Assembly: GCA_001044195.1 (NCBI GenBank)
Contig: LFCU01000241.1
Span: forward strand, 1-20,221
DNA length: 20,221 bases
Source: Candidatus Achromatium palustre
GTDB taxonomy: Bacteria > Pseudomonadota > Gammaproteobacteria > Chromatiales > Chromatiaceae
Direction: 5' to 3'
The translations under genes were made by a program, and so were the position numbers. The notes under the pieces were generated by a model. That model made no database searches. It had not been told where the DNA came from and worked only from the letters and a program-made list of their open reading frames with translations. Of the stretch, positions 1,971 to 16,045 are shown piece by piece; the stretch's first letter is position 1, and each line of letters begins with the position of its first letter.

Positions 1971-2219
1971 TTAACTATATTCTAAAACCGTATCCCACTG
2001 TTCAGAACTAAGCAAAGAATCTTCAAGATCAGATGAGTCTGTGTCATCGAAAAACACGGATGTATCCTCTCTAATTTCTGCATAAATGACTTTTAATCGT
2101 TCACGCTCAAAATCAAATTCGGATCGTATTGCATCTACATCAACTGGTAGTGTTGCATTGATATTGTTTTTTAACCAATTTTCAATATCTAGGCTGCGTT
2201 TTGTCCATTTATCAATCAT
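1971..2219 (-). CDS. Small acidic protein (82 aa), paralog of the ORF at 3153-3407. It is translationally coupled to the upstream MotB-like gene.
   Basis: Its start overlaps the MotB-like stop by ATGA (2216-2219). The first 30 aa are identical to the paralog, and the acidic S/T-rich tail DDTDSSDLEDSLL is conserved. No TM helix or signal peptide is present. Confidence 0.6.
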   Translation of the reverse strand: MIDKWTKRSLDIENWLKNNINATLPVDVDAIRSEFDFERERLKVIYAEIREDTSVFFDDTDSSDLEDSLLSSEQWDTVLEYS

Positions 2220-3109
2220 TGCGTTGTTCCCAAGGCTTTTTGGGGCTTATTCCTTTTGGTGAAGCGTAGTTCAATGCGTCTTCGAGAAGGGACGTTTTTA
2301 TTTTGGGCACCCTGCAATATGTTATTGTTTGGGGAAATAAGTTGTGATCCTGAGTAAACTCTAAAAACAAGTTGTTTTAAGCGTGGATCATTTGATCTTG
2401 CAAATATATTAAACAATGCTGCCGCAACAGATAAGGCGCGAGCTAGTCCGAGATCTGCATTTGAGCCAATTTGTAGTTGTCTAATCACGTTTGCTGATGT
2501 AGGTCCGAATTGAAAATTTCTTAATTTGGTATCCAGATTGGATGCTCTAGATCTTACTGGTATTCCATCAGTATGCCCTATAACTTCTATTACTTCGATT
2601 GGATAATCTTTAATGATAGCTAATATTTTGGGAACTATGTTTTGTTCTAAACGGCCTTCAAATTCAGGAGATACATTACTACTTCCAGATGTAAAAACAT
2701 AACCTGAAGCTTCTTGTAATGGAAATACTAAGGGCTTATCTGGCCTACGTTTTAATTCACCTTCTAAACCTTTAATGCGAGCTGTGTAATGGGATCGATA
2801 GGTTTGCAGTCTTTCTACTAATCTTTCTAATTCAGCCTCTAAAACTTGAATACGGTTTGCGCTATCTGTACGATTTGTTCTACAAGTTTGCAGTGTTTGT
2901 TCTAAATTTTCAATATTTTGTGAAGAATTTAATTGATGTCGAGTTAATTCTATTCCTAATCTTTTTATCTCTTGTTTTAATTTTTGCAGTATACCAAAAT
3001 GCATGGTATTATCCACCACCCATAAAATCAATACTAACATCAATATTGCTAAAATTAGATCTGTTAATGATGGCCAAAATGACACTTCATCTTTCTGTTT
3101 GTTAAACAT
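2216..3109 (-). CDS. MotB/ZorB-like stator subunit (about 298 aa). It has an N-terminal TM helix with a conserved Asp, an approximately 90-aa coiled-coil linker, and a C-terminal OmpA-like peptidoglycan-binding domain.
   Basis: The TM segment is LTDLILAILMLVLILW, with the D-x12-W spacing seen in MotB. The OmpA motif GHTDG...NxxLGLARALSVAAAL is present. The start was chosen at the internal Met (MFNKQKDEVSFWPS, ATG at 3109) by homology with the N-terminus of the paralog (MFRKYQEEVSFWPS). The 339-aa track ORF from 3235 would overlap the upstream small ORF. Confidence 0.75.
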   Translation of the reverse strand: MFNKQKDEVSFWPSLTDLILAILMLVLILWVVDNTMHFGILQKLKQEIKRLGIELTRHQLNSSQNIENLEQTLQTCRTNRTDSANRIQVLEAELERLVERLQTYRSHYTARIKGLEGELKRRPDKPLVFPLQEASGYVFTSGSSNVSPEFEGRLEQNIVPKILAIIKDYPIEVIEVIGHTDGIPVRSRASNLDTKLRNFQFGPTSANVIRQLQIGSNADLGLARALSVAAALFNIFARSNDPRLKQLVFRVYSGSQLISPNNNILQGAQNKNVPSRRRIELRFTKRNKPQKALGTTQ

Positions 3110-3152
3110 AAACAAGCATCCTGAATTGTTGTACCTAAAAATAGATAGCTTA

Positions 3153-3407
3153 TTACTGTAATTTGTATTCCAGTACCATGTCCCACTGTTCAGGATTAAG
3201 CAAAGAATCTTCAAGATCAGATGAATCGGTATCATCTAAAAAAACAGCCATATCACCTTCAATTGTTACATAAATATTTTCTAAACGTTCTAATTCGGTA
3301 TCAAATACATATCGCATTGCATCTACATCAACTGGTAGTGTTGCATTGATATTGTTTTTTAACCAATTTTCAATATCTAGGCTGCGTTTTGTCCATTTAT
3401 CAATCAT
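3153..3407 (-). CDS. Small acidic protein (84 aa), paralog of 1971-2219. It is translationally coupled to the upstream MotB-like gene.
   Basis: There is an ATGA start/stop overlap with 3404-4045. The N-terminal 30 aa are identical to the paralog, and the acidic tail DDTDSSDLEDSLL is conserved. Confidence 0.6.
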   Translation of the reverse strand: MIDKWTKRSLDIENWLKNNINATLPVDVDAMRYVFDTELERLENIYVTIEGDMAVFLDDTDSSDLEDSLLNPEQWDMVLEYKLQ

Positions 3408-4045
3408 TGCGTTGTTCCCAATACTGTTTGGGGTTTATTCCTTTTGGTGAAGCGTAGTTCAATGCGTCTTCGAGAAGGGACGTTTTTATTTTGGGCACCC
3501 TGCAATATGTTATTGTTTGGGGAAATAAGTTGTGATCCTGAGTAAACTCTAAAAACAAGTTGTTTTAAGCGTGGATCATTTGATCTTGCAAATATATTAA
3601 ACAATGCTGCCGCAACAGATAAGGCGCGGGCTAGTCCAAGATCTGCATTTGAGCCAATTTGTAGTTGTCTAATCACGTTTGCTGATGTAGGTCCGAATTG
3701 AAAATTTCTTAATTTGGTATCCAGATTGGATGCTCTAGATCTTACTGGTATTCCATCAGTATGCCCTATAACTTCTATTACTTCGATTGGATAATCTTTA
3801 ATGATAGCTAATATTTTGGGAACTATGTTTTGTTCTAAACGGCCTTCAAATTCAGGAGATACATTACTACTTCCAGATGTAAAAACATAACCTGAAGCTT
3901 CTTGTAATGGAAATACTAAGGGCTTATCTGGCCGGCGCATTGAAATATCTACTATCCATAAAATCAACACTAATAACAATACTGCTAAAATTAAATCTGT
4001 TAATGAGGGCCAAAATGATACTTCTTCTTGGTATTTACGAAACAT
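3404..4045 (-). CDS. MotB/ZorB-like stator subunit, short form (213 aa). The TM helix is joined directly to the OmpA-like domain, so it lacks the coiled-coil linker of its paralog.
   Basis: The TM segment is LTDLILAVLLLVLILW. The OmpA-like domain is nearly 100 percent identical to that of the paralog. The RRPDKPLVF junction follows immediately after the TM helix. Confidence 0.75.
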   Translation of the reverse strand: MFRKYQEEVSFWPSLTDLILAVLLLVLILWIVDISMRRPDKPLVFPLQEASGYVFTSGSSNVSPEFEGRLEQNIVPKILAIIKDYPIEVIEVIGHTDGIPVRSRASNLDTKLRNFQFGPTSANVIRQLQIGSNADLGLARALSVAAALFNIFARSNDPRLKQLVFRVYSGSQLISPNNNILQGAQNKNVPSRRRIELRFTKRNKPQTVLGTTQ

Positions 4046-4150: not shown

Positions 4151-5962
4151 CTACCCATTCCACCACTTAGATAATTTTGAACTTGAAACTTTAGTATTAG
4201 TCTGGTTTAGTACGTTAGAGAGATTTGCAATAGATACCTGCAATAACTTCATGTCATCATGGAAATTTTTATCGTATTGATGAGATGGGTTAGCACTACT
4301 TAACAATGAACCAATTTTTGTTTGCAATTCCGAAGCCATAGCATTTGCAAATACCGTTGGTAAATTTTGTAGAAGAGTTTGATGTAATTGTTGTTGAGTT
4401 GATATTGCGGTCTTAATTGCGCTGGAAAAATTGCGAAACTCGGTAATAAGGCTGGTATTATGTTGACTAGAAACGTTTGTACTATTTGCTAATGAATCAA
4501 GCTCCGCTTGTAACTTAGAAGTTATGGCATCTGCAATTATCATTGGTAGATCTTCTAACAGATTTTTAGTGTTTGCGGCTTCTGTCGTGACTGTATTTGA
4601 AAAATTGCTAAATTCAGTATTAAAGTTCGTTAGTTCCGTTTTCCATTGTACTGTAATGCTGTTTAACAATTTGCCATATTTATCAATGTTGCTAGTTGTT
4701 ACAGCTAAACTATCAATAACAGTTTGCAAGCTTTTAACTGAATTGGTTGCTTCCGTAGCAGTATCTAAGACAGATTTGGTTAAATTAGCTGTCTCCTGGT
4801 GCAAGATAAACAATTCTTTGTTTTGGGCAGTTGAAAGCTCTTGCATTTTTACTACAGCATCTTGTAATTGGGCATAACGCTGTTCTGCTGGACTAACCGC
4901 CTGATATAGTTTATCCATAGCTTGCAAAAAAGGGGCATTTGAGGCAACACTTTTATCGAAACGATTAGCTGCGGTATTAAGAGTATTTGCCGCTTGCCCT
5001 ATACTCTGTATAATTGGTGACAAAGCTGCTGCAAATTGGGTCATAGCATCTGTTGTATTTTGGGCTGATTTATTAATGGCTGCTATGGCACTATTGTTGG
5101 TATTATTGATGTTCTTAGCAGAAGTGTCAAAAGCATCAGACAATAGTTCACTTCCTATTGAAATTGTATCCATAAATTCAGTTATAGATTTATTAGTATT
5201 TGCAGCTAATTGGTTAATACCCGTTATGGCACTATCGCTTGTATTATTGATGTTTGTAGTATAAGTATCAAAGGCTTCAGATATTTCTTGGCTTTTTGTT
5301 GAAATAGTATCACCAAGTTTAGAGATAGATTCTTCGGTTTTTTCTGATTGAGTTTCTATTATTTTAATTTTATTGCTATCATTCCATGGAATTAAAACTT
5401 TGCTGGCAAAATTTACAAAATTTCGTGCAGCTATATTGTATGTAGGATCAAGCAATCCGAAGCGAATAGCCTGTAATATCAGCGTTGCAATGACTCCAAA
5501 GATGCTAGGCCAAAACGCACTAGTAAGTGCCTCTTGTAATTGTTGATAGGTATCTTGATTTATTCCCTCTGGAACAGCATAATGTAACGAAAATAAGGTA
5601 CCAGCGATACCACATAGCAACACTACTGAAATGGCATATCTTCTAATACCAATAAGAATCTTAATCCATAACTCATTTGGCTCAATAAGATCAATAGCCG
5701 CTTCTGGTGCATGATCAGTTGCCAAAATTCGATTAAATGCTGGTCTTAATGGGTGATTTTTTCCTATTTTGCGATCTAGCCAAGCTCGCATATTAGTAGG
5801 ATCAGTATTTCGTAAATCATATTCAAGATCTGCAATAACTTTGGACTGAGTATACCAAAACCGGATCTCCAAAATAAAACCAATAATAGCTGAAATACTT
5901 AAGATAGCTATTATTCCTATAAATATTATAGAAGCTGTAGACATGTTTAAAAGTATAGACAT
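4151..5962 (-). CDS. MotA/ExbB/TolQ-like membrane protein with a roughly 420-aa low-complexity helical C-terminal tail (603 aa). It looks like a ZorA-like motor subunit.
   Basis: It has three predicted TM helices in ExbB-like topology: residues 10-32, then around 100-125 (LLCGIAGTLFSL), then around 150-175 (IFGVIATLILQAIRFGL). The tail from about residue 190 to 603 is rich in N/T/S/A/Q, contains internal imperfect repeats (for example SxAFDTxxxNINNT), and has no TM. The gene sits directly upstream of two MotB-like genes and directly downstream of the kinase, with a 27-bp gap. Confidence 0.7.
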   Translation of the reverse strand: MSILLNMSTASIIFIGIIAILSISAIIGFILEIRFWYTQSKVIADLEYDLRNTDPTNMRAWLDRKIGKNHPLRPAFNRILATDHAPEAAIDLIEPNELWIKILIGIRRYAISVVLLCGIAGTLFSLHYAVPEGINQDTYQQLQEALTSAFWPSIFGVIATLILQAIRFGLLDPTYNIAARNFVNFASKVLIPWNDSNKIKIIETQSEKTEESISKLGDTISTKSQEISEAFDTYTTNINNTSDSAITGINQLAANTNKSITEFMDTISIGSELLSDAFDTSAKNINNTNNSAIAAINKSAQNTTDAMTQFAAALSPIIQSIGQAANTLNTAANRFDKSVASNAPFLQAMDKLYQAVSPAEQRYAQLQDAVVKMQELSTAQNKELFILHQETANLTKSVLDTATEATNSVKSLQTVIDSLAVTTSNIDKYGKLLNSITVQWKTELTNFNTEFSNFSNTVTTEAANTKNLLEDLPMIIADAITSKLQAELDSLANSTNVSSQHNTSLITEFRNFSSAIKTAISTQQQLHQTLLQNLPTVFANAMASELQTKIGSLLSSANPSHQYDKNFHDDMKLLQVSIANLSNVLNQTNTKVSSSKLSKWWNG

Positions 5963-5989: not shown

Positions 5990-7354
5990 TTATATCGAAT
6001 TTGTCATTGGTTCAATAGATACTCGCCCGTGTGCAAAGTCAAACGCCCTTACTCCTACAAACCGAAATGCGTGATTACGTTTACATCGTAGTTGCCTCCC
6101 AGAAGCAAGATGCACAATCCAGGTATCATTGCTTAAATTTTTGAGAGTCATCCCACGTTCTGGTGTCTCTTTTATTTCGGCCATTGGACGCTTAAATTGA
6201 AATTCCTGATTATCCAAATGGTGCTCATAGAGTTTGCGTCCATGAGTCGCTAAAATTTTAGTACCATTAGAAAATTTTAAATACCAACGTTTATTTGGAT
6301 GCTTGGTATCGCAAAATAGACATGTACAATTCTGATCGGAGATAAAAAAACGTTGGTGACAATTAGAGCATTCCGCCATACATTCCAACGCTTGCCAAAA
6401 TTCTCTAGCCCAAGTTGCCGCTGAATGGCGTTTTGTAGGATTTTTAAGCCCAATGGTGAATACTTGTTGAAATCTAGTTTGCATGGACTTTGGCAAATGA
6501 GCAAATGGAATACCATTAGTAGTAAAACGATTCCTACTATCTGTAGGATGTTCAGTAAAGATAGCACTAGTACCAAGTCCCTCATCTTCAGTCATGTAAT
6601 CCAAATTAAAATTCGGATCAACATCGCCTATAAATGGATGCCTAAACATGACTAAATAAAACAGTAGTACGGCCAAACTATGTCGATCCGTTTCCGCAGA
6701 TGGATGTGGATGTTGTGCTGTTATAAGCTCTGGTGCTCTAAAACCAGGAGTTCCAGCTACTTTTACTGGCAGATAGTTACTATTCCCACATGCAAGATTA
6801 TCGCAATCAATAAGACATATACTACCATCAGAGGTATTAAAAAATACATTACCCAAAGATAAATCGCAATGAGTCATCCCATGGCTATGAATCATCCGTA
6901 ACGCTTGCGAAAGGTAGAAGCCTGCTAATAAAAAATGATGATATTTATCATAATTGCTAAGTACAGAACGCAGGGCTGCACTTATAAATGGATTGGGTTG
7001 GTCATAAGGATCTGTAAGTAATGAATCGTGATTCAGTGGTTTACCTATCGCCAATTCCATTAGTACGCCAAATTCATTAGCAGAACTATATATAGCTCTG
7101 GGAAAGCAAACTTGGGCTTGGGGTAAAGTCCTGGCAATTTCTTTGGCAACATCGATGATTGTTTCTAGGCGTTCTTGCTGTTGATATAGTTCTGCTTGAG
7201 CGGGTAGTTTTTTAAATAATTTAAGGGCCATTTTATGGCTATCATGAGTGCGCTGGACTTGCCAGACATCAGCCTGTTGTCCAGAGCCTAGTGCAGCTTT
7301 ATACTTATATTCTTCGCCGTTAGTTGTAGTAAAGTTGGAGTTTTCTGTAGGCAT
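5990..7354 (-). CDS. Hanks-type Ser/Thr protein kinase (454 aa) with a C-terminal Cys-rich zinc-ribbon and an additional uncharacterised roughly 100-aa domain
   Basis: Kinase motifs are present: a G-loop LGSGQQADVW, the lysine in ALKLF, the catalytic loop HCDLSLGNV, a DFG-like DCD, and GTPGFRAPE. Cys clusters include CMAECSNCH and CTCLFCDTKH. Confidence 0.85.
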   Translation of the reverse strand: MPTENSNFTTTNGEEYKYKAALGSGQQADVWQVQRTHDSHKMALKLFKKLPAQAELYQQQERLETIIDVAKEIARTLPQAQVCFPRAIYSSANEFGVLMELAIGKPLNHDSLLTDPYDQPNPFISAALRSVLSNYDKYHHFLLAGFYLSQALRMIHSHGMTHCDLSLGNVFFNTSDGSICLIDCDNLACGNSNYLPVKVAGTPGFRAPELITAQHPHPSAETDRHSLAVLLFYLVMFRHPFIGDVDPNFNLDYMTEDEGLGTSAIFTEHPTDSRNRFTTNGIPFAHLPKSMQTRFQQVFTIGLKNPTKRHSAATWAREFWQALECMAECSNCHQRFFISDQNCTCLFCDTKHPNKRWYLKFSNGTKILATHGRKLYEHHLDNQEFQFKRPMAEIKETPERGMTLKNLSNDTWIVHLASGRQLRCKRNHAFRFVGVRAFDFAHGRVSIEPMTNSI

Positions 7355-7366
7355 GATATTAATAGG

Positions 7367-8272
7367 TTACAGATTGTAAAATACAGCTACCAGTGTTTTA
7401 TCATCATCAGAAAATTTATGTTCTTCCCAGTAATTACAATATGCTGTGGCATATTCTTCTAAAGCTACTGGATCATCTAAGCATTGTTTTAATTTTGGCC
7501 ATATAGCACTAAAATATAAGTTGGGATCGCCAATACTTTCACTCAGCCCATCGGTCATAAGGCAGAAACCTACACTATCTTTGTATTCAGTTATTCCAGG
7601 ACTTGACTCTGCAAAACCACGTTGCCATTCAGTGTTGGTTAACGGTCGAACTTCATTGACAAAGCCTTCACGTATATTTTCAGTTAAAAGCTGTGCTGCA
7701 ACTTTATCATCTGGTCTTGAAGAGATTTTATATATAGCACCATCTCCAACGATTGCTGCCCAGTAACCTTCAGAGTTTAAATATAGTAGTAATGCTGTTG
7801 TGGCGTATTCTGTTAAGTAGCCATCTACTAATGTTTGTGAAGATGTTTTTATATCCTGGGTATCATCTTTATTTTTATGACCAGTTTTATTTTGCTCGTT
7901 ATCTTCTTGGCATAATATTACAAACTTATCTCTAGCGTCAGTAAAGTAGTCTTTCAATTGATTGCTATTAAGAATACTTGTGCTTGCACCACTAAATACT
8001 TGACCCAGGGCAGTACAAGCACATTCAGCTCCTTTACGAGAGCGTGATCTGGTACTTACTCCATCTGCTACGGTTAGAGTCAGTGATTTAATATCATCTA
8101 CTTTTGTAGGTGTAGGCCAGTAAGCAGTAAAATCTTGGCATTCTGTACTTTGATCCACATGAGCTTTACCACGCCAAGAAAACGTTACAATTGCTATACT
8201 TTTGCCAGATATGTTGTAACGTTTAATTTTTGGAGGTATGCTAAAATGCTCAGAATTTAAATAAGCAGTCAT
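7367..8272 (-). CDS. PP2C-family Ser/Thr phosphatase (301 aa), the TerY-P phosphatase component
   Basis: Metal-binding Asp/Gly motifs are present: VADGVS, VGDGAIY and LMTDGLSE. It lies 8 bp after the vWA gene and 12 bp before the kinase gene. Confidence 0.8.
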   Translation of the reverse strand: MTAYLNSEHFSIPPKIKRYNISGKSIAIVTFSWRGKAHVDQSTECQDFTAYWPTPTKVDDIKSLTLTVADGVSTRSRSRKGAECACTALGQVFSGASTSILNSNQLKDYFTDARDKFVILCQEDNEQNKTGHKNKDDTQDIKTSSQTLVDGYLTEYATTALLLYLNSEGYWAAIVGDGAIYKISSRPDDKVAAQLLTENIREGFVNEVRPLTNTEWQRGFAESSPGITEYKDSVGFCLMTDGLSESIGDPNLYFSAIWPKLKQCLDDPVALEEYATAYCNYWEEHKFSDDDKTLVAVFYNL

Positions 8273-8279
8273 AGTGCTT

Positions 8280-8954
8280 TTAATTAACTAACTGAGTTCC
8301 AGGAATCTCACTTATGGGTCGTTTTTCTGAAATTTCTACTGTCAATGTCCTTAAATTTTTAAAAAAGCCACTGATAGTAGCTTGATCTTTCAGTCTAACA
8401 ATGTGCGATTTTTCTCTACCCTTATGGTAAAAGGCAGTTAAAACCGAATCGTTTATATCATCACCGGCTCCAGCAATTACTCTAATTCCAGCGACTCTAC
8501 CTGATGGTCTAGTGCCTATAAGAGGATTTTCATTCATAAGCTGTAATTGATCTTTCCAAGCTTGTTCGGAGCAATTAGGGTTACCATCGGTGATAAATAC
8601 AAATAATGGTTCTTTGCCTTTTTTTAATTCGTTTTTATTACGTTCTACTAATGCTAATACTTCTGCTAAACCTGCATCAAGGTTTGTGTATCCTGCTCCC
8701 ACTTCAATTTGAGGAATATCTATAGAGCCAATAGGTTGATGTTCAATGATAGTCTCAGCAATATCGCTAAAAGTTATCACCGATATAAAGACAGAATCAC
8801 GGGTATCTTCATTGCTTTGCAATTCTTCGATGTAATCACGAATGCCATTATTAGCCTGTTGTATACCAACTGGCTCCATACTATAAGATACGTCTACTAA
8901 CAATATAATGGGTATGGGTTTACGTGCAGTTGCACCATCTGGTATTTCAATCAT
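8280..8954 (-). CDS. TerY-like von Willebrand factor A domain protein (224 aa) with a MIDAS motif. It is the first gene of the operon.
   Basis: The MIDAS motif DxSxS is present as ILLVDVSYSM, with downstream FITDG. An AGGAA ribosome-binding site lies about 10 nt upstream of the ATG. An 876-bp AT-rich non-coding region lies upstream. Confidence 0.85.
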   Translation of the reverse strand: MIEIPDGATARKPIPIILLVDVSYSMEPVGIQQANNGIRDYIEELQSNEDTRDSVFISVITFSDIAETIIEHQPIGSIDIPQIEVGAGYTNLDAGLAEVLALVERNKNELKKGKEPLFVFITDGNPNCSEQAWKDQLQLMNENPLIGTRPSGRVAGIRVIAGAGDDINDSVLTAFYHKGREKSHIVRLKDQATISGFFKNLRTLTVEISEKRPISEIPGTQLVN

Positions 8955-9011
8955 GCTTTATTTATTCCTAATATATTACGACAAATAGTGGATTTCATTT
9001 TGTTTCTACTT

Positions 9012-9041
9012 ATTCTACATATTAATAGGCACAAAGATCAA
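9012..9041 (-). promoter_or_regulatory. Candidate sigma70-type promoter for the TerY-P/ZorAB-like operon (TTGATC-N18-TAGAAT on the minus strand)
   Basis: A -35-like TTGATC (reverse complement at 9036-9041) and a -10-like TAGAAT (reverse complement at 9012-9017) are separated by an 18-nt spacer, about 60 nt upstream of the vWA start codon. This was found by eye only. Confidence 0.25.
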
Positions 9042-9101
9042 CTACTTTCCAATTGCACTATAAAGGTCAAATTGTATTTGACACTATCTATATCAATTTT
9101 A

Positions 9102-9130
9102 GGGCATCCTTCATTTCTCAGTGTACAATT
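9102..9130 (-). repeat. Copy of the dispersed bipartite X/Y motif (reverse complement: AATTGTACACTGAG-AAATGAAGGATGCC)
   Basis: Its X unit matches AAATGAAGGATGCC at 9539-9552, and its organisation matches 1881-1907 and 15189-15225. Confidence 0.5.
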
Positions 9131-9400
9131 TATAGATTGGTTATATTTTTAGCATTCTTTATCAATACCTCGATGCTCAAAAGTTAGAAAACGCTTATAT
9201 ACTTAGATATGTTGACATTACATATTTTAATTAGATTTTTACTTGATTAGCTCTACTCAATATTGTATACGTTCTATCCTGTAGAAGCCTTATAGCTTAA
9301 GTAATTAAAATATTACCTAATACTAACTTTTGAACATCAAGAATGCTGATGCGAATATCCTATTTCCAATTCAAAAAGTGGGCATCATTCACCAACACCC

Positions 9401-9433
9401 AAAAGTAGTTTACACTTTAAGAAGGATGACGAC
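9401..9433 (-). repeat. Y-unit (AAAGTGTAAACTACTTT, reverse complement) plus a degenerate X-like unit (GAAGGATGAC). It forms a 17-bp inverted repeat with 9556-9572.
   Basis: AAAGTAGTTTACACTTT at 9401-9417 is the exact reverse complement of AAAGTGTAAACTACTTT at 9556-9572. Confidence 0.5.
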
Positions 9434-9520
9434 AAGTAAAATAAATTTTTTCTTAACTTGAAACATCTGATATATAAACACTTTTTAGAAATAAAAAATA
9501 TTTTCAATTTTTAATGTCCT

Positions 9521-9597
9521 TAAAAAGTGTTAACCGACAAATGAAGGATGCCAAAAAGTGTAAACTACTTTGTAGACGGAAATAAAGAATGCCACGA
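9521..9597 (+). repeat. Cluster of X/Y motif units: a Y-like unit, X (CAAATGAAGGATGCC), Y (AAAAAGTGTAAACTACTTTG), then an X-like unit (AAATAAAGAATGCC)
   Basis: The units were read directly from the sequence. They sit in the 876-bp intergenic region between the vWA gene and the second SiaB-like gene. Confidence 0.5.
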
Positions 9598-9720
9598 TTA
9601 AAATTGGATATGATTTCTTCCCCAATTATAACTTTATGCTTATTAAACAGGGAGAGGTTTTTAAATAATATCTAATGTTACAAATTTAATTTGGAAAAGT
9701 AGAATTTCTTAACAGAACAA

Positions 9721-9786
9721 TATAATGCGCATTAAACTTGATATGCACCAACGGGATGATATCACATTACTTGGTGTACGTATTTA
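9721..9786 (+). pseudogene. Relic 3' end of a PP2C/SpoIIE phosphatase gene (encodes MRIKLDMHQRDDITLLGVRI-stop). It is an imperfect direct repeat of 1771-1847.
   Basis: It is about 85 percent nucleotide identical to the last roughly 25 codons of the phosphatase gene at 855-1847 (IRIQLEMHQQDELQRDDITLLGVRV-stop). It carries a 15-nt in-frame deletion flanked by CCAAC microhomology. The final 35 nt are 31/35 identical. Confidence 0.6.
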
Positions 9787-9831
9787 AATATAGATAAAGA
9801 TTACCATAAACTTAAAATAGAGACAAAAATT

Positions 9832-10386
9832 ATGGATAATTTCGATGTTTTCGAATTTTATCAATTTATGCAAAGACAAAATGTGATTCTATCCTTCAAG
9901 GGAGAAATGTCACAGCAAATACTGGTTAATATTGGTGATTTATTGAAAGAAAAATTAGCATCTGAAGATACGGAAAAACAGGTCACTAAAAAAGTATTCT
10001 TCATTTTCGTTGAATTGGCGCAAAATATTCACCGTTATTCCGCTGATCGAGGCATTGAAGATAAAAAACGAGCAGGTACAGGTGTGTTATTTGTTAAAGA
10101 ATCTGCCAATTATTTCACAATTTTTGCTGGCAATAGAGTTGCTCCTCTGGAAGCAAAAGTGACCACCGAGCAATGTTTGGCAATTAGCCGATTAACGCCA
10201 AATGAACTGAAGCTATATTATAAAGAACAACTAAAACAACCGCGTGAAGATGAAACCTCTGGTGCTGCTGGTCTTGGACTTATTAGTATCGTCCGTAAAG
10301 CCGAAAACCCAATTGTTGCGTATACTATAGACATTGATACCAATGAAACTTTTTTGGTACTATCAGTTCAAGTGAATAAGGAATAA
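9832..10386 (+). CDS. SiaB/DUF6272-like histidine-kinase-like ATPase (partner-switch Ser/Thr kinase, 184 aa)
   Basis: The sequence has a GHKL-type N-box-like stretch (ELAQNIHRY), a G1-like stretch (TGVLFV) and a G2-box (GAAGLGLI). It is followed 4 nt later by a SiaC-like gene. Confidence 0.8.
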   Translation: MDNFDVFEFYQFMQRQNVILSFKGEMSQQILVNIGDLLKEKLASEDTEKQVTKKVFFIFVELAQNIHRYSADRGIEDKKRAGTGVLFVKESANYFTIFAGNRVAPLEAKVTTEQCLAISRLTPNELKLYYKEQLKQPREDETSGAAGLGLISIVRKAENPIVAYTIDIDTNETFLVLSVQVNKE

Positions 10387-10390
10387 ACCA

Positions 10391-10780
10391 ATGCAAGATC
10401 TAAAGATTGTTGGCACAAAAGATACATTAACCGTAAATTTTATAGTAGAATCTGGTATCTTGACATTGAAAGGAGCCTCTTATCCAGAAAATCCTGTTAA
10501 TTTTTTTGATCCGCTCTATACATGGATTACAACATATACACAAGAAATCCATAATACATTAACCGTGAATATGACGATTAATTATGTGAATACTAGTTCA
10601 TCTAAATGCTTACTTGATTTTTTAGAATTACTGGAAAATTATCATAATTCAGGCGGAAAGATTACGCTTAATTGGTACTATGAAGAGGATGATGAAGACA
10701 TGTTAGAGTGTGGTGAAGAATTGTGCGAAGATCTAAAGCTGCCCTACTCAATGATTCCAATTGTTGGGAATCCTGAATAA
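10391..10780 (+). CDS. SiaC-like DUF1987 partner-switch phospho-protein (129 aa)
   Basis: It has the LKGASYPEN motif and an acidic C-terminus, and is paralogous to 341-730. Confidence 0.8.
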   Translation: MQDLKIVGTKDTLTVNFIVESGILTLKGASYPENPVNFFDPLYTWITTYTQEIHNTLTVNMTINYVNTSSSKCLLDFLELLENYHNSGGKITLNWYYEEDDEDMLECGEELCEDLKLPYSMIPIVGNPE

Positions 10781-11244: not shown

Positions 11245-14200
11245 TTATTGCTTTATAAGTTTTTCGAGTTTTTCTACCTCATTCTTTGCGTTAGTATGTC
11301 CCTGAGCAGCAGCCTTTTGGTACCACTTTAGAGCCTCTTTGTAATCTTGAGTGACTCCGTCGCCATTGTCATACATAACGCCAATATTGTATTGCGCATC
11401 AGCATCCCCTTGAGCAGCAGCCTTTTGATACCACTTTAGAGCCTCTTTGTAATCTTGAGGTACTCCTTGGCCATTGTCATACATAAATCCAATCTGTAAT
11501 TGTGCATTAGCATTCCCTCTAGCAGCGGCCTTTTGAAACCACTTTAGAGCTTCTTTGTAATCTTGAGATACGCCTTGGCCATTTGCATACATAAATCCAA
11601 TATAAATTTGAGCATCAGTATGTCCCTGAGCAGCAGCCTTTTGATACCACTTTAGAGCCTCTTTGTAGCTTTGATGGACTCCTTGACCATTGTAATACAT
11701 AAGACCAATATTGTATTGCGCACCAACATTCCCTTGAGCAGCGGCCTTGCGATACCAATTTAGAGCCTTTTTATAATCTTTAGGCACTCCTTGTCCATTT
11801 GCATACATAACACCAATATTGTATTGCGCATACGCATCACCTTGAGCAGCAGCTTTTTGAAACCATTTTAATGCTTGATTGTAATCTTGAGGTATACCCT
11901 TGCCACTAAGGTATATATCACCTATCCCATTTTGTGCATCGGCATTACCTTGATATGCGGCTTTATTCCACCACTCTAATGCATCCGCGTAGTTTTGATA
12001 TATTCCTTGGCCACTGTAGTACATAAAACCAATATTGTATTGCGCATCAGCATTCCCTTGAGCAGCGGCCTTGTGATACCACTTTAGTGCCTCTTTATAG
12101 TCTTGAGGTACGCCTTGACCGTTGTGATACATAACACCAATATTGTATTGCGCATTAACATACCCTTGAGCAGCGGCCTTTTGATACCACTTTAGAGCCT
12201 CTTTGTAATTTTGAGGTACTCCTTGGCCATTGTAATACATAAGACCAATATTGGATTGCGCACCAACATTCCCTTGAGCAGCAGCCTTTTGATACCACTT
12301 TAGAGCCTCTTTGTAATTTTGAGGTACTCCTTTACCAATGTTATACAGGGCACCAATATTGCTTTGTGCTTTAGCATTCCCTTGAGCAGCAGCCTTTTGG
12401 TACCACTTTAGAGCCTCTTTGTAATCTTGAGATACGCCTTGGCCATTTGCATACATAACACCTATCCCATTTTGTGCATCGGCATTACCTTGAGCAGCGG
12501 CCTTGTGATACCACTTTAGTGCCTCTTTATAGTCTTGAGGTACGCCTTGACCGTTGTGATACATAACACCAATATTGTATTGCGCATTAACATACCCTTG
12601 AGCAGCGGCCTTTTGATACCACTTTAGAGCCTCTTTGTAATTTTGAGGTACTCCTTGGCCATTGTAATACATAAGACCAATATTGGATTGCGCACCAACA
12701 TTCCCTTGAGCAGCGGCCTTGCTCCACAATTTGAATGCCTCTTTGTAGCTTTGAGGAACACCTTTACCCAAAGCGTACATCAATCCAATATTGCTTTGTG
12801 CTGTAGCATTCCCTTGAGCAGCGGCCTTGCGATACCAATTTAGAGCCTCTTTGTAATCTTGAGATACGCCTTGGCCATTTGCATACATAAATCCAATCTG
12901 TAATTGTACATTAGCATTCCCTTGAGCAACAGCCTTTTTATACCACTTTAGAGCCTCTTTGTAATTTTGAGGTACACCTTGGCCATTGTAATACAGCCCA
13001 CCAATATTGTATTGCGCACCAACATGCCCTTGAGCAGCAGCCTTTTGGTACCACTTTAGAGCCTCTTTGTAATTTTGAGGTACTCCTTGGCCATTGTGGT
13101 ACATCCAACCAATATTGTTTTGAGCAGATTTAAGTCCTTGAGCAGCAGCTTTGTGGAACCATTTCAAGGCTTTTTTGTAATTTTGAGTTACATTTTTGCC
13201 AAGATAATAAGTAATGCCAATATTAAATTGCGCATTAGCATATCCTTGAGCTGCTGCTTTATGAAACCATTTTAGAGCCTTCTTAGGATCTTTAGGTATA
13301 CCTTTACCATCACGATACATAACACCAATATTGTGTTGCGCCTCAACATGACCTTGAGCAGCAGCTTTGCGATACCAATTTAGAGCTTCTTTATAATCTT
13401 TAGATACACCTTGGCCATGGTGGTACATCCAGCCAACACCGACTTGCGCAATAGCATCACCTTGAGCAGCAGCTTTGTGGAACCATTTCAAGGCTTTTTT
13501 GTAATTTTGAGGTACACCTTGGCCATTGTAATACAGGCTACCAATATTGTATTGCGCACCAACATCTCCTTGAGCTGCTGCTTTATGAAACCATCTAAGA
13601 GCTTCTTTGTAGTCTTTGGTTACGCCTTCACCATTGCGGTACACCAGACCAATATTGTTTTGTGCTCTAGCATTTCCTTGGGCTGCTGCTTTGTGATACC
13701 ATTTAAGAGCTTCTTTGTAATCTTTGGCTACGCCTTCACCTGAACTATAAGCAATGCCGACAGCATTTTGTCCGTTACTATTATTTTGCGCAGCAGACAG
13801 ACGAAACCATTTCAATGCCTCTTTAGAATTCTGGGCTACGCCTAGCCCCATAGCATATATTTTACCAAGCTCATATTGAGCTTCAGCATCACCGTGAGCT
13901 GCTGCTTTGCGATATTTTTTTAGAGCCGCTGCTTGATCTTGGGGAGAACTTGAAGAATTATCCTCATGTTTCGGAGCCTCTAACTTTGCTAGTTTTAATT
14001 CCATACTCGCTGTTGTGGCCTTAAACTGTTGCTGCATCTGTTGCATACGTGATTCTAACTGCTGACGCTGTTGGCGTTCGGCAGCTAGTTGAGATTGTAA
14101 TCTAGCAACTTGCGGATTTTCTACAACTGGTGGGCTGGAGAGATACAGGGCATCTTCTAAAGAGGAAGAATCCCAAGGGATTTGAAAGCCTCTGGTCTCT

Positions 14201-15090
14201 TGCTTTACATCCTTACGTACCTTACGCAGAACAAACTGAATATCCCCTGGAGTATTGATATATTTGAGGAGATGCTTGGTAAAAGTACCATTACGACCAT
14301 GACCATCCTCAGCTACACTATTAGGACTCGTTGCATAGACTAATAGAGTATCCGATGGAGTATTCATCCTTGCCAAACCTGAACGCATTCTCCGGCCCTT
14401 GACACCACGGCTTAAAAATGGATTATTACGACAGGCATCTAAAAAAACTATTTTAGTTTTGGCCGCTTTAATCTTAATCAATAATTGACTGGCACGAATA
14501 GCTTGGCGTTCGATTTGATCTTCACGCTTAAAATACGCATCTACTGGTAATAGATAATTTTCGCCCTTGACCTGAACACCATGTCCTGAATAATAGACTA
14601 AAGCTATATCACCAGCCTGTAATTGCAGACCAAAATTATGGATCGCATCATCCATCTCTAACAACTTGGCATCTTTGAGCAATGCAACTTTAAAACCTAA
14701 ACCTTGCAAGGCATTGCTCATATCCTCGGCATCGTTAGCTGGATTTAATAATGGCGGTAAATCACTCGGCATGGCACTGTAGGCTGAATTACCGATTACC
14801 AGAGCCATACGGCGACTGGTAACTCTTCCTAATGCTTTAGTTTGGGTAGGTTTGGTAACAGGAGGCTTATTGGCTATAGCACCAGAATCACCAGTATTTC
14901 TGGTAGCTATTTTGGTAGCTATTGGAGTAGATTGTTTAGGCTTGCTAGCAACTATAGTACTAGGTTTTTTAGTATCTTTAGTAAACAGATTATTGTTGCA
15001 GCCAGTAATCAATAGAGTTAGGCCGATGCTACATAGCCATAATGGCCATGCAGACAACTGGAGAGTTTTAATTAGTTGTTTTAGAAACAT
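11245..15090 (-). CDS. Large lipoprotein (1281 aa) with four parts: signal peptide and lipobox, a caspase-like peptidase C14 domain, a coiled-coil, and about 25 Sel1-like repeats
   Basis: The N-terminus MFLKQ...LLITGCNNN ends in an LITGC lipobox. The caspase His/Cys dyad is present in YYSGHGVQ and VFLDACRNNPF. A Q/R-rich coiled-coil occupies about residues 320-390. A 36-aa Sel1 consensus (AQYNIGVMYxNGQGVPQDYKEALKWYQKAAAQGN) is repeated through to the C-terminus. Confidence 0.85.
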   Translation of the reverse strand: MFLKQLIKTLQLSAWPLWLCSIGLTLLITGCNNNLFTKDTKKPSTIVASKPKQSTPIATKIATRNTGDSGAIANKPPVTKPTQTKALGRVTSRRMALVIGNSAYSAMPSDLPPLLNPANDAEDMSNALQGLGFKVALLKDAKLLEMDDAIHNFGLQLQAGDIALVYYSGHGVQVKGENYLLPVDAYFKREDQIERQAIRASQLLIKIKAAKTKIVFLDACRNNPFLSRGVKGRRMRSGLARMNTPSDTLLVYATSPNSVAEDGHGRNGTFTKHLLKYINTPGDIQFVLRKVRKDVKQETRGFQIPWDSSSLEDALYLSSPPVVENPQVARLQSQLAAERQQRQQLESRMQQMQQQFKATTASMELKLAKLEAPKHEDNSSSSPQDQAAALKKYRKAAAHGDAEAQYELGKIYAMGLGVAQNSKEALKWFRLSAAQNNSNGQNAVGIAYSSGEGVAKDYKEALKWYHKAAAQGNARAQNNIGLVYRNGEGVTKDYKEALRWFHKAAAQGDVGAQYNIGSLYYNGQGVPQNYKKALKWFHKAAAQGDAIAQVGVGWMYHHGQGVSKDYKEALNWYRKAAAQGHVEAQHNIGVMYRDGKGIPKDPKKALKWFHKAAAQGYANAQFNIGITYYLGKNVTQNYKKALKWFHKAAAQGLKSAQNNIGWMYHNGQGVPQNYKEALKWYQKAAAQGHVGAQYNIGGLYYNGQGVPQNYKEALKWYKKAVAQGNANVQLQIGFMYANGQGVSQDYKEALNWYRKAAAQGNATAQSNIGLMYALGKGVPQSYKEAFKLWSKAAAQGNVGAQSNIGLMYYNGQGVPQNYKEALKWYQKAAAQGYVNAQYNIGVMYHNGQGVPQDYKEALKWYHKAAAQGNADAQNGIGVMYANGQGVSQDYKEALKWYQKAAAQGNAKAQSNIGALYNIGKGVPQNYKEALKWYQKAAAQGNVGAQSNIGLMYYNGQGVPQNYKEALKWYQKAAAQGYVNAQYNIGVMYHNGQGVPQDYKEALKWYHKAAAQGNADAQYNIGFMYYSGQGIYQNYADALEWWNKAAYQGNADAQNGIGDIYLSGKGIPQDYNQALKWFQKAAAQGDAYAQYNIGVMYANGQGVPKDYKKALNWYRKAAAQGNVGAQYNIGLMYYNGQGVHQSYKEALKWYQKAAAQGHTDAQIYIGFMYANGQGVSQDYKEALKWFQKAAARGNANAQLQIGFMYDNGQGVPQDYKEALKWYQKAAAQGDADAQYNIGVMYDNGDGVTQDYKEALKWYQKAAAQGHTNAKNEVEKLEKLIKQ
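11270..13910. repeat. 108-bp tandem DNA repeat of about 24 units encoding the Sel1 repeats, with higher-order near-identical 432-bp (4-unit) duplications
   Basis: For example, 12049-12290 is near-identical to 12481-12722 (offset 432). The protein shows a 4-repeat block duplicated almost verbatim (NVGAQSNIGLMYYNGQGVPQNYKEALKWYQKAAAQGYVNAQYNIGVMYHNGQGVPQDYKEALKWYHKAAAQGNADAQ occurs twice). Confidence 0.85.
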
Positions 15091-15398: not shown

Positions 15399-15794
15399 TT
15401 AGACAGGTTCCACAACCACTAATTCAATATCGCCATTCTCTAGCACTTTTTCTTCCTCAATAATCAACCCCTGTTCTGCTACCTGTTTTTTGATTGCCAA
15501 ATGTGCGTAAACACGATTTACATCCTGCATAAATTCTTCTTCCTGAATTTTAGTAGTTCGTTTAATACCCCACCAATCAGTACAAACGGCGTAAGTGTTA
15601 TCTTCTTGACGTTGAAAACCAATGCTATATCTCCCACCAGTGTCGACTACAATCTGGCCGAGTTCAGTATTGTCTTGATAGCCATAGATTGGTAAATCTT
15701 CACCAGTCTGAAATTCATATTCTAATTGACGTAAAGTCTCCTCTAATAGTATTTGGTCGGTAATTTGGGTTTTAACTTGAGAAAAATGAGACAT
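15399..15794 (-). CDS. DUF1257/Ycf35-like small protein (132 aa from the internal start MSHFSQVKTQI...)
   Basis: From memory, the N-terminus MSHFSxxKTQIxD resembles the Ycf35/DUF1257 family found in cyanobacteria and plastids. An AGGAA ribosome-binding site lies about 9 nt upstream of the ATG at 15794. The longer 153-aa ORF from 15860 lacks a ribosome-binding site and adds a non-conserved extension. Confidence 0.55.
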   Translation of the reverse strand: MSHFSQVKTQITDQILLEETLRQLEYEFQTGEDLPIYGYQDNTELGQIVVDTGGRYSIGFQRQEDNTYAVCTDWWGIKRTTKIQEEEFMQDVNRVYAHLAIKKQVAEQGLIIEEEKVLENGDIELVVVEPV

Positions 15795-15929
15795 ATTAGG
15801 GTTCCTAAAAAATAATTTAAATGTATTATACTCGACTATCCAGTTTTTTTGACTTGACAAATTTGTAGGGCGGGAGAACGAAGTGATCCAGCCTTCTATA
15901 TAAGTTTACTATTTTGCAATAATGTTGGA

Positions 15930-15947
15930 TTGCCAAACAGATGGCAA
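15930..15947. promoter_or_regulatory. Inverted repeat TTGCCA-N6-TGGCAA in the divergent intergenic region between the DUF1257-like and vault-protein genes. It is a candidate operator.
   Basis: The sequence reads ttgccaaacagatggcaa, and the arms extend to 8 bp with one mismatch (GATTGCCA/TGGCAACC). It lies about 100 bp upstream of the MVP start codon. Confidence 0.3.
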
Positions 15948-16045
15948 CCCAACCTACGATGCTTATTGACAAGTGACATTATTCTGGTACATTTTCTTAT
16001 AAACATCCTAAATTTAACTTAAATATAATATTTTAAATAATAAAT

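Follow-up and report, generated by a model that had tools for sequence, protein, structure and literature searches.

A ZorA-, ExbB- and TolQ-like membrane protein with a long helical tail, encoded beside a TerY-P-like triad in Candidatus Achromatium palustre

The operon and the membrane core of protein A

The stretch of DNA analyzed here (the window; 20,221 nucleotides (nt), positions 1 to 20,221 of contig LFCU01000241.1, assembly GCA_001044195.1) comes from the gammaproteobacterium Candidatus Achromatium palustre. On its minus strand it carries an operon in which a von Willebrand factor A (vWA) protein, a PP2C-family phosphatase and a Ser/Thr kinase are followed by a membrane protein with a very long C-terminal tail, called A here, and then by two peptidoglycan-binding B subunits, each with a gene for a small acidic protein behind it. 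A is the fourth gene in the order vWA-PP2C-kinase-A-B1-84 aa-B2-82 aa (aa, amino acids), and the spacings from the vWA gene to the last small gene are 7, 12, 27 and 105 nt, a 4-nt overlap, 43 nt and a further 4-nt overlap. The fixed combination of a motor-like A protein with a switch of the TerY-P type suggests a Zorya-like type of defence that has not been described before. The A gene and the parts of its core, including three transmembrane (TM) helices, are the following.

4151..5962, minus strand: gene of the A subunit, ZorA/ExbB/TolQ-like with a long tail, 603 aa (from the open reading frame, fold matches and the family alignment)
5453..5962, minus strand: motor core, residues 1-170
5867-5938, minus strand: TM1, residues 9-32
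Between TM1 and TM2: helical cytoplasmic loop, residues 33-106
5582-5644, minus strand: TM2, residues 107-127, with the invariant motif LLCGIAGT
5459-5527, minus strand: TM3, residues 146-168, with the motif AFWPS

The gene runs from an ATG at 5962 to a stop codon at 4151-4153; the coordinates given for it in the original prediction, 4151-5962, are correct and the strand is minus. The true start may be M7 (nt 5944), six codons downstream, because the N-termini of homologues coincide with this residue in the family alignment. Hydropathy places TM segments at residues ~9-32, 107-127 and 146-168 and none beyond residue 172, in agreement with the expectation of a three-TM core followed by some 420 residues free of TM helices (about 433 by our count). 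Lysine and arginine residues number 0 at the N-terminus, 10 in the first loop, 0 in the second loop and 5 in the segment after TM3 where the tail starts, so that the positive-inside rule predicts an N-out, C-in topology like that of ExbB, TolQ and ZorA, with the tail in the cytoplasm. Topology had been named beforehand as a point on which the claim of a cytoplasmic tail could fail, and here the positive-inside rule agrees with it; a periplasmic tail was considered and rejected on this rule together with homology.

Several lines of evidence connect this core with the MotA/ExbB/TolQ/ZorA superfamily, the clearest of them at the level of structure. An AlphaFold2 model of residues 1-205, based on an alignment of 35 sequences, reaches a pLDDT (the predicted score in the local distance difference test) of 89 and a predicted template modelling score (pTM) of 0.78. 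The characteristic fold of the superfamily is seen in the model: TM1, a helical domain in the cytoplasm, and a TM2-TM3 hairpin leading back into the cytoplasm. The top 50 Foldseek matches of the core model are all TolQ, ExbB, ZorA or MotA proteins, with probabilities of ~1 and TM-scores of up to 0.66, and the full-length model retrieves the same families. TolQ and ExbB rank ahead of ZorA among the best matches. The loop of residues 33-106 is modelled as short helices only (pLDDT 75-96), and in this all-helical cytoplasmic loop the modelled core is closer to ExbB and TolQ. Across 35 family members the best-conserved core positions are LLxxG(L/I)xGT in TM2 and AFxxS in TM3, with G118 and G121 invariant and T122, A149, F150 and S153 conserved in at least 90% of the sequences.

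Sequence searches gave less. The original prediction had proposed a direct profile search for a MotA-family core as a test of its assignment, and in that search no curated profile matched: Pfam, NCBIfam and PADLOC have no match to residues 1-190 of A. A core-only profile built from 35 sequences was searched against 177,635 sequences of the Protein Data Bank (PDB) and found five ZorA chains (8vvn, 8vvi, 8qyh, 8qyy and 8qyk) at weak E-values of 0.026-1.1, together with one unrelated match; the ZorA alignments span the GxxGT motif of TM2 and the AFxxS motif of TM3. When the profile was aligned by hhalign with a single TolQ from Escherichia coli, TM2-TM3 came into register (GLFGT) at a probability of just 15%. 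A search of the PDB sequences by hmmsearch with the whole-protein alignment returned coiled-coil noise only, such as coronavirus spike HR1 and alpha-synuclein. There are also transitive links: the distant family members P0033, P0039 and P0036 match the PADLOC profiles ZorA3, ZorA1 and ZorA2 at E 1e-11 to 1e-7 over TM2-TM3 and the tail. Taken together, the modelled fold, the weak profile matches to ZorA chains in the PDB and these transitive matches point to membership of A in the superfamily.

Composition, conservation and duplication of the tail

The features recognized within the tail are listed here.

4154..5452, minus strand: predicted cytoplasmic tail, residues 171-603, ~433 aa, rich in S, T, A, N and Q (from DSSP assignment of the AlphaFold2 model, periodicity and composition)
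5318..5377, minus strand: lineage-specific insertion of 20 aa at the start of the tail, residues 196-215, a gap in all homologues
5033..5314, minus strand: repeat A, two tandem copies of 47 aa, residues 217-263 and 264-310
4874..4972, minus strand: mid-tail motif RFDKSVASNxPFLxAMxxLYxAxSPAExRY, residues 331-363, with invariant P344 and P358
4268..4627, minus strand: repeat B, two tandem copies of ~58-62 aa, residues ~446-503 and 504-565

The residues N, T, S, A and Q make up 51% of the tail (186-603) and S and T alone 23%, compared with 32% and 11% for the other 13 proteins of the window taken together, which bears out the richness in these residues noted in the original prediction. The further claim of low complexity holds in a milder form. 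Sequence entropy over 40-residue stretches is 3.51 bits in the tail and 3.6-3.9 bits in the other window proteins; this is a moderate lowering, which amounts to a compositional bias and not to extreme low complexity. Some of the bias is shared by the whole family, in which S and T account for 17-23% of the tail and small polar residues for 40-47%. The asparagine content is more variable, at 10.4% in the window protein, 7.6% in the homologue P0010 and 1.7-3.8% in other homologues, which are rich in Ala and Gly instead. The richness in asparagine probably arises because the DNA is AT-rich, with a G + C content of 33-35% in gene A.

In the full-length AlphaFold2 model, DSSP assigns the tail entirely to helix, with breaks at residues 341-343, 353-360, 492-499, 556-562 and 587-594. 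Fourier analysis of hydrophobicity gives a coherent period of 3.55-3.63 residues for the window protein as well as for each of 10 homologues, and 0-7 of 200 shuffled sequences reach the observed peak. A period of ~3.6 residues is the signature of long amphipathic helices that pack with little supercoiling. The helical tail that had been foreseen is thus supported both by the model and by the periodicity.

Conservation along the tail is uneven. The mid-tail motif (331-363) has a block conservation of 0.92, equal to that of the TM2-TM3 region, compared with 0.56-0.81 in other blocks of the tail, and is a candidate hinge or docking site. Further invariant prolines are found at positions 192, 316 and 535, and the C-terminus of A ends in a conserved basic and aromatic motif, KKKWY..W. 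Because of the invariant prolines and the conserved mid-tail motif, the tail is best described, from the model and the alignment, as a helical rod divided into segments, in which one or more sites are candidates for a hinge or for docking, and not as a uniform polymer of repeats. The 507-aa tail of ZorA spans ~70 nm (PMC11946911), and by analogy a tail of 433 residues would reach ~60 nm if it is extended in the same way.

Two recurring motifs had been quoted as signs of internal repetition. Both are real and correspond to the copies of the 47-aa duplication, repeat A (217-263 and 264-310). At the DNA level it is a direct repeat of 141 nt with 70% nucleotide identity; at the protein level it has a self-comparison score of 110, compared with 29±5 for shuffled sequences (z=15), a score attained by 0 of 500 shuffles. 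Repeat B, which the original prediction did not list, has a period of 58 aa, a spacing of 174 nt in the DNA and the same protein z-score of 15. Self-comparison found no other significant internal repeats in the tail, and Tandem Repeats Finder reported nothing at the DNA level. The repetition therefore consists of two local, two-copy duplications that cover about half of the tail, and there is no long array, so that the tail is internally repetitive in a limited sense. The more general picture of a rod built from repeats did not survive: homologues show repeat A faintly at most, and what they share is the set of invariant prolines and a conserved motif that is not a repeat.

The columns of repeat A are free of gaps in homologues, where internal similarity at this place is faint (z 0.5-4.5), and therefore repeat A is either an old duplication that was homogenized in this lineage or a recent replacement. 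The first copy of repeat B corresponds to a 58-column gap in all 10 of 10 distinct close homologues (522-554 aa), and the homologue at locus L013 is also shorter, at 541 aa; in the alignment this copy is a lineage-specific insertion. The 20-aa insertion at residues 196-215 is the block of lowest conservation outside repeat B. Strong tail duplications have arisen independently in three other members of the family: P0024 (43 aa, z=18), P0033 (40 aa, z=22) and P0037 (104-aa offset, z=15). Because of the lineage-specific 58-aa copy and these independent duplications elsewhere, the suggestion that tail length changes through the gain of repeats is well founded. Tails in the family are 219-495 aa long (median 353), and a long tail is kept in 37 of 37 full-length members.

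The periods of the duplications (40, 43, 47, 58 and 104) all lie within ~0.1 turn of an integer number of helical turns at 3.6 residues per turn. Their root-mean-square deviation from whole turns is 0.09, compared with 0.29 for random periods and 0.17-0.38 for the neighbouring helical periods tested. This fit is suggestive but comprises just five values and a chosen helical period, and the 20-aa insertion falls outside the pattern.

Partner genes, gene order and distribution

The other members of the operon are given below in the order of transcription.

8280..8954, minus strand: TerY-like vWA protein, 224 aa, first gene of the cassette, with an intact metal-ion-dependent adhesion site (MIDAS) motif DVSYS at residue 21 (VWA, E 5.9e-10)
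7367..8272, minus strand: PP2C-family phosphatase, 301 aa (PP2C_2, E 8.5e-24)
5990..7354, minus strand: Ser/Thr kinase, 454 aa (Pkinase, E 1.3e-17), its gene ending 27 nt upstream of A
3404..4045, minus strand: B1, ZorB/MotB-like subunit, 213 aa (Pfam OmpA, E 9e-5; PADLOC ZorB1, E 2.9e-8)
3153..3407, minus strand: small acidic protein 1, 84 aa, 20 D+E and 7 K+R, its start overlapping the stop of B1 by 4 nt
2216..3109, minus strand: B2, 297 aa from M43 of an open reading frame of 339 aa (PADLOC ZorB1, E 5.7e-8, from the TM helix to the peptidoglycan-binding domain)
1971..2219, minus strand: small acidic protein 2, 82 aa, 79% identical to the first

The B subunits carry the features expected of the partner of a motor-like A protein. 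In B1, which also matches the NCBIfam MotB family and TssL OmpA, a TM helix containing Asp17 lies at the N-terminus and runs without a linker into an OmpA-like peptidoglycan-binding domain. In an alignment of 10 B proteins Asp17 is nearly invariant, and the peptidoglycan-binding signatures GHTD, SNADLGL.RA and RRIE.RF vary little or not at all. Judged by these features, B1 is the B subunit that would be expected of a 5:2 stator. The ZorB-like partner that had been anticipated is thus present directly downstream of A, as both B1 and B2, with their ZorB1 matches and a TM aspartate. B2 also has a Pfam OmpA match, and its peptidoglycan-binding domain shares 99% identity with the one in B1; it carries an 85-aa coiled-coil linker between this domain and the TM helix. 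Since there are two B genes, one motor may use alternative B subunits that differ in their periplasmic reach.

Both the gene for B and that for the small acidic protein are tandemly duplicated (window 1971-4045), and no second B gene is found in the homologous loci examined. Among homologues the B linker is hypervariable, ranging from 0 to ~150 aa (for example, L002:11648-12718, L005:9639-10601 and L007:9689-10651). In Verrucomicrobiota the linkers contain tandem 'VVKKADWEKRVE'-like units, the copy number of which depends on the locus (B proteins of 356 and 320 aa). As the copy number of these units varies, the length of B too changes by gain or loss of repeats, in parallel to the tail of A.

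The first three genes match, at the level of sequence, the TerY-P triad of Anantharaman, Iyer and Aravind 2012 and of Gao et al. 2020 as described in PMC11090510, in which a vWA protein and a PP2C phosphatase are accompanied by a kinase whose C-terminus bears a zinc ribbon. The kinase has two CxxC pairs, CSNC at residue 329 and CLFC at 345, which at the motif level are consistent with such a ribbon. Its last ~100 aa (~350-454, window 5990-6300) have no family match and no PDB sequence match, and an FHA-like beta domain that had been suspected by eye for the C-terminus found no support in the family or PDB searches. In the systems of Gao 2020 the kinase C-terminus may carry an OB fold instead. 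PADLOC matches of the kinase were to mad6, PD-T4-6 and MkoA only.

The order vWA-PP2C-STK-A-B (STK, Ser/Thr kinase) is fixed in 10 of 10 related loci (L001-L007, L010, L013 and one contig, without DNA, of the Joint Genome Institute (JGI)). A scan of genomes yielded four loci and a scan of metagenomes one. A homologue of the small acidic protein lies downstream of B in 7 of the 10 related loci (L002-L007 and L013), which by sequence comparison makes it a conserved sixth gene of the cassette; the 84-aa protein itself has no family match in Pfam or NCBIfam. Upstream of the more distant A-family member P0016, too, there is a fragment of a homologous kinase, namely its C-terminal part. Identity across loci is 45-69% for the proteins of the triad and 29-45% for A.

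The A family is tiny. A database of 5.8 billion sequences contains 11 of its proteins, and a search of 1.84 billion cluster representatives with the core-only profile finds 39 at E<=1e-3. Close homologues with an organism name come from metagenome-assembled genomes of Verrucomicrobiota. The homologous loci are flanked by genes for IS66 and Y1 transposases and for PDDEXK, TIR and DUF2971 proteins, and NERD-UvrD genes too lie near homologues. A different cassette was observed at L009:814-8769 and at L011 and L012, and consists of Tubulin_2/FtsZl1 (996 aa), a PBP_like_2+OmpA protein (692 aa), an A-like protein and a B-like protein. MotA and TolQ are not mentioned in the analysis of operons with vWA, kinase, OmpA and FtsZl1 components by Makarova and Koonin 2010 (PMC2875224), in which the membrane proteins of the FtsZl1 operons were listed as uncharacterised.

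Possible function and genomic setting

The closest known system is the ZorA/ZorB pair of Zorya types I-III (PDB 8QYD, 8VVN; PMC11946911, PMC11890865). In both, a long helical tail follows TM3 (433 aa here, compared with 507 aa for ZorA of E. coli), the B subunit combines an aspartate in its TM helix with a peptidoglycan-binding domain, and the operon is modular and includes soluble partners. The differences are also substantial. The core of A is not covered by any ZorA hidden Markov model, and its loop, shorter than that of ZorA, consists of helices alone in the model, with neither the beta-hairpin nor the Ca2+ site of ZorA (PMC11946911, PMC12505986). The vWA/PP2C/kinase triad and the small acidic protein take the place of ZorC/D, ZorE and ZorF/G, and the genes of the triad lie upstream of A and B, unlike the soluble partners of Zorya. 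ExbB and TolQ end soon after TM3 and are tailless, whereas A has a long tail, and the periplasmic domain of ExbD and TolR differs from the OmpA-like domain of B. The likeness to the TerY-P triad extends to a vWA protein with MIDAS, PP2C and a kinase with zinc ribbon in the same order and in tight linkage. However, the known triads (PMC11090510) stand alone or accompany CoCoNuT/McrBC and DNA-processing systems, and here the triad accompanies a stator pair. Operons with FtsZl1 (PMC2875224) share vWA, kinase and OmpA-domain components with the cassette, and distant A-family and B-like members occur inside them, but the cassette in the window has no FtsZl1, GTPase or PBP-OmpA gene.

On balance, and with modest confidence, we lean towards the interpretation that A and B form a ZorAB-like ion-driven unit of the inner membrane, with A5B2 stoichiometry, in which the long tail couples envelope sensing to the TerY-P switch, most plausibly for defence against phages. 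By analogy with ZorA, five A tails would bundle into a rod of ~60 nm when fully extended. Disturbance of the envelope would let B anchor to the peptidoglycan and open the ion path, upon which the A pentamer and its tail would move. By way of the mid-tail motif or of its tip, the tail might then recruit or release the vWA/kinase/phosphatase module, and this module would switch on a response based on phosphorylation, most plausibly an anti-phage one. The length of the tail would evolve through tandem duplications that add near-whole helical turns. Of this picture, the analysis shows the core fold, the features of the B subunits, the predicted topology, the amphipathic helices of the tail with their history of repeats, and the gene order; the 5:2 assembly, rotation, bundling of the tails, coupling to TerY-P and a role in defence are inferred. 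Two published findings fit this proposal: the tail of ZorA is required for Zorya signalling (PMC11946911), and TerY-P-like triads are reported (PMC11090510, citing Gao 2020) as stand-alone anti-phage systems. The transposase, PDDEXK, TIR and NERD-UvrD genes near homologues also agree with a defence context.

A number of observations weigh against this interpretation. In direct searches PF01618 MotA_ExbB, or its NCBIfam equivalent, has no match to A at E<0.1, and 0 of the 39 family members match Pfam MotA_ExbB at E<0.01. The PADLOC ZorA matches of A (E 2e-5 to 8e-4) cover tail residues 197-493 only, and they probably reflect composition, because LmuB and JetC, which are SMC-like coiled coils, obtain PADLOC scores on the tail similar to those of ZorA. 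The core model shows neither the beta-hairpin nor the Ca2+ site known from ZorA, and the links of A to ZorA and TolQ at the sequence level are weak. The pLDDT of the tail is 40-50 in the monomer model, although a low value would be expected for the monomer of an oligomeric bundle. The proposed contact between the tail and the TerY-P proteins has strict synteny as its one support. PADLOC found no match at E<0.1 for the vWA or PP2C protein, with coverage of TerY-P by its models unverified, and none of ZorC, ZorD, ZorE, ZorF or ZorG among the six operon proteins scanned. Distant family members (P0019, P0020 and P0033) follow a PBP_like_2-OmpA protein, and P0020 also follows a Tubulin_2 (FtsZl1) gene. 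Lastly, the neighbourhood in the window (SiaC/SpoIIE, caspase-Sel1 and vault-like genes) is no classical defence island.

The main alternative is a somewhat unlikely one, in which A and B are an ExbBD/TolQR-type energiser of envelope or membrane remodelling, the tail is a scaffold for vWA, kinase or FtsZl1 partners, and the triad has a regulatory role. It would account for the all-helical cytoplasmic loop and for TolQ and ExbB being better Foldseek matches than ZorA. It also agrees with the position of P0019, P0020 and P0033 beside PBP-OmpA genes and of P0020 beside Tubulin_2/FtsZl1, given that vWA/kinase/OmpA/FtsZl1 operons have been proposed to remodel membranes (Makarova and Koonin 2010, PMC2875224), and with a window neighbourhood that looks regulatory and not defence-like. 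However, long tails are a hallmark of ZorA and are missing from ExbB and TolQ (PMC11946911), and ZorA is the sole motor family that the family profile matches among PDB sequences. The anti-phage activity reported for TerY-P-like triads (PMC11090510) argues against it too, as does the rare and patchy occurrence of the loci, next to genes for transposases, TIR and PDDEXK proteins.

It is improbable that the tail is a biased, largely disordered or passive spacer, in which the repeats and the asparagine richness are neutral products of slippage in AT-rich DNA and length is irrelevant. Such a spacer would explain the low pLDDT of the tail, the way in which lineage-specific asparagine richness tracks a G + C content of 33-35%, the faster evolution of A relative to the triad, and Pfam matches that are restricted to generic coiled-coil or apolipoprotein-like families. 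The conservation of periodicity and motifs makes it unlikely: the amphipathic period of 3.6 residues is kept in every homologue, DSSP assigns all helix, and the prolines are invariant and the mid-tail motif conserved like the TM core. Tails of 219-495 aa in 37 of 37 full-length members, and duplication periods near whole helical turns, point the same way.

Similarly little probability attaches to a tail that folds back at the mid-tail motif into a chemoreceptor-like hairpin, with the KKKWY..W C-terminus at the membrane and a bundle of half the length and double the thickness; the conserved breaks with Pro/Gly at 341-360, close to the midpoint of the tail, a conserved C-terminal basic/Trp motif that could bind lipid head groups, MCPsignal matches in two family members (E 5e-6) and the HHpred similarity of the ZorA tail to chemoreceptors (PMC11946911) would fit such a hairpin, but it is disfavoured because its arms are unequal (~141 and 167 helical residues in homologues, 161 and ~225 in the window protein) and the 58-aa duplication extends the distal arm only, which an antiparallel hairpin would tolerate poorly, and in its solved part the ZorA tail forms a parallel pentamer (PMC11946911).

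Within the ZorAB-like interpretation, a more specific version is possible but doubtful. It proposes a fourth Zorya-like class: a proton-driven 5:2 motor with a rod of ~60 nm that would control a vWA/PP2C/zinc-ribbon-kinase switch instead of nucleases, its reach tuned on both sides of the membrane by in-phase tandem duplications, within the tail of A on the cytoplasmic side and the linker of B on the periplasmic side, and with two alternative B subunits. If true, an ion-driven rotary stator would here be connected for the first time with signalling by protein phosphorylation. In the literature we found no Zorya types beyond I-III and no paper that joins ZorA- or MotA-like proteins with TerY-P, the original description of TerY-P lying outside the search, so that a prior mention is possible.

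What is new is a Zorya-like motor and tail with an output that would be based on phosphorylation, in a very rare and highly divergent family, and this association at the level of the system is more interesting than the composition or the repeats of the tail. To our knowledge, no immune system other than Zorya is based on a flagellar-stator-like motor. The same architecture with a different output module would show that motor plus tail is a portable sensor, and a kinase read-out would be easier to assay than the recruitment of a nuclease. Natural variants, with whole-turn duplications in the tail and with B subunits that have or lack a linker, are suited to tests of the effects of length. The findings also offer a stator-like or structural identity for the uncharacterised membrane proteins of vWA/kinase/OmpA/FtsZl1 operons.

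Several other genes in the window are of interest in their own right. Two genes of the SiaC family (PF09345), DUF6272 and SpoIIE-type PP2C genes flank the cassette on both sides on the plus strand (341-1847 and 9832-10780) and look like regulatory modules of the partner-switching type. Between the vWA gene and the divergent DUF6272 gene there is an AT-rich intergenic region of 880 nt (8955-9831; G + C content ~28%), which presumably holds the promoter of the cassette. Further along, at 11245-15090 on the minus strand, a protein of 1281 aa combines a signal- or anchor-like N-terminus with a Peptidase_C14 caspase domain (E 3e-46) and 24 Sel1 repeats, many of them near-identical. It is followed at 15399-18562 by a gene for an 838-aa bacterial homologue of the major vault protein (MVP_shoulder, E 3e-18; Vault_3), which adjoins a DUF1257 gene.

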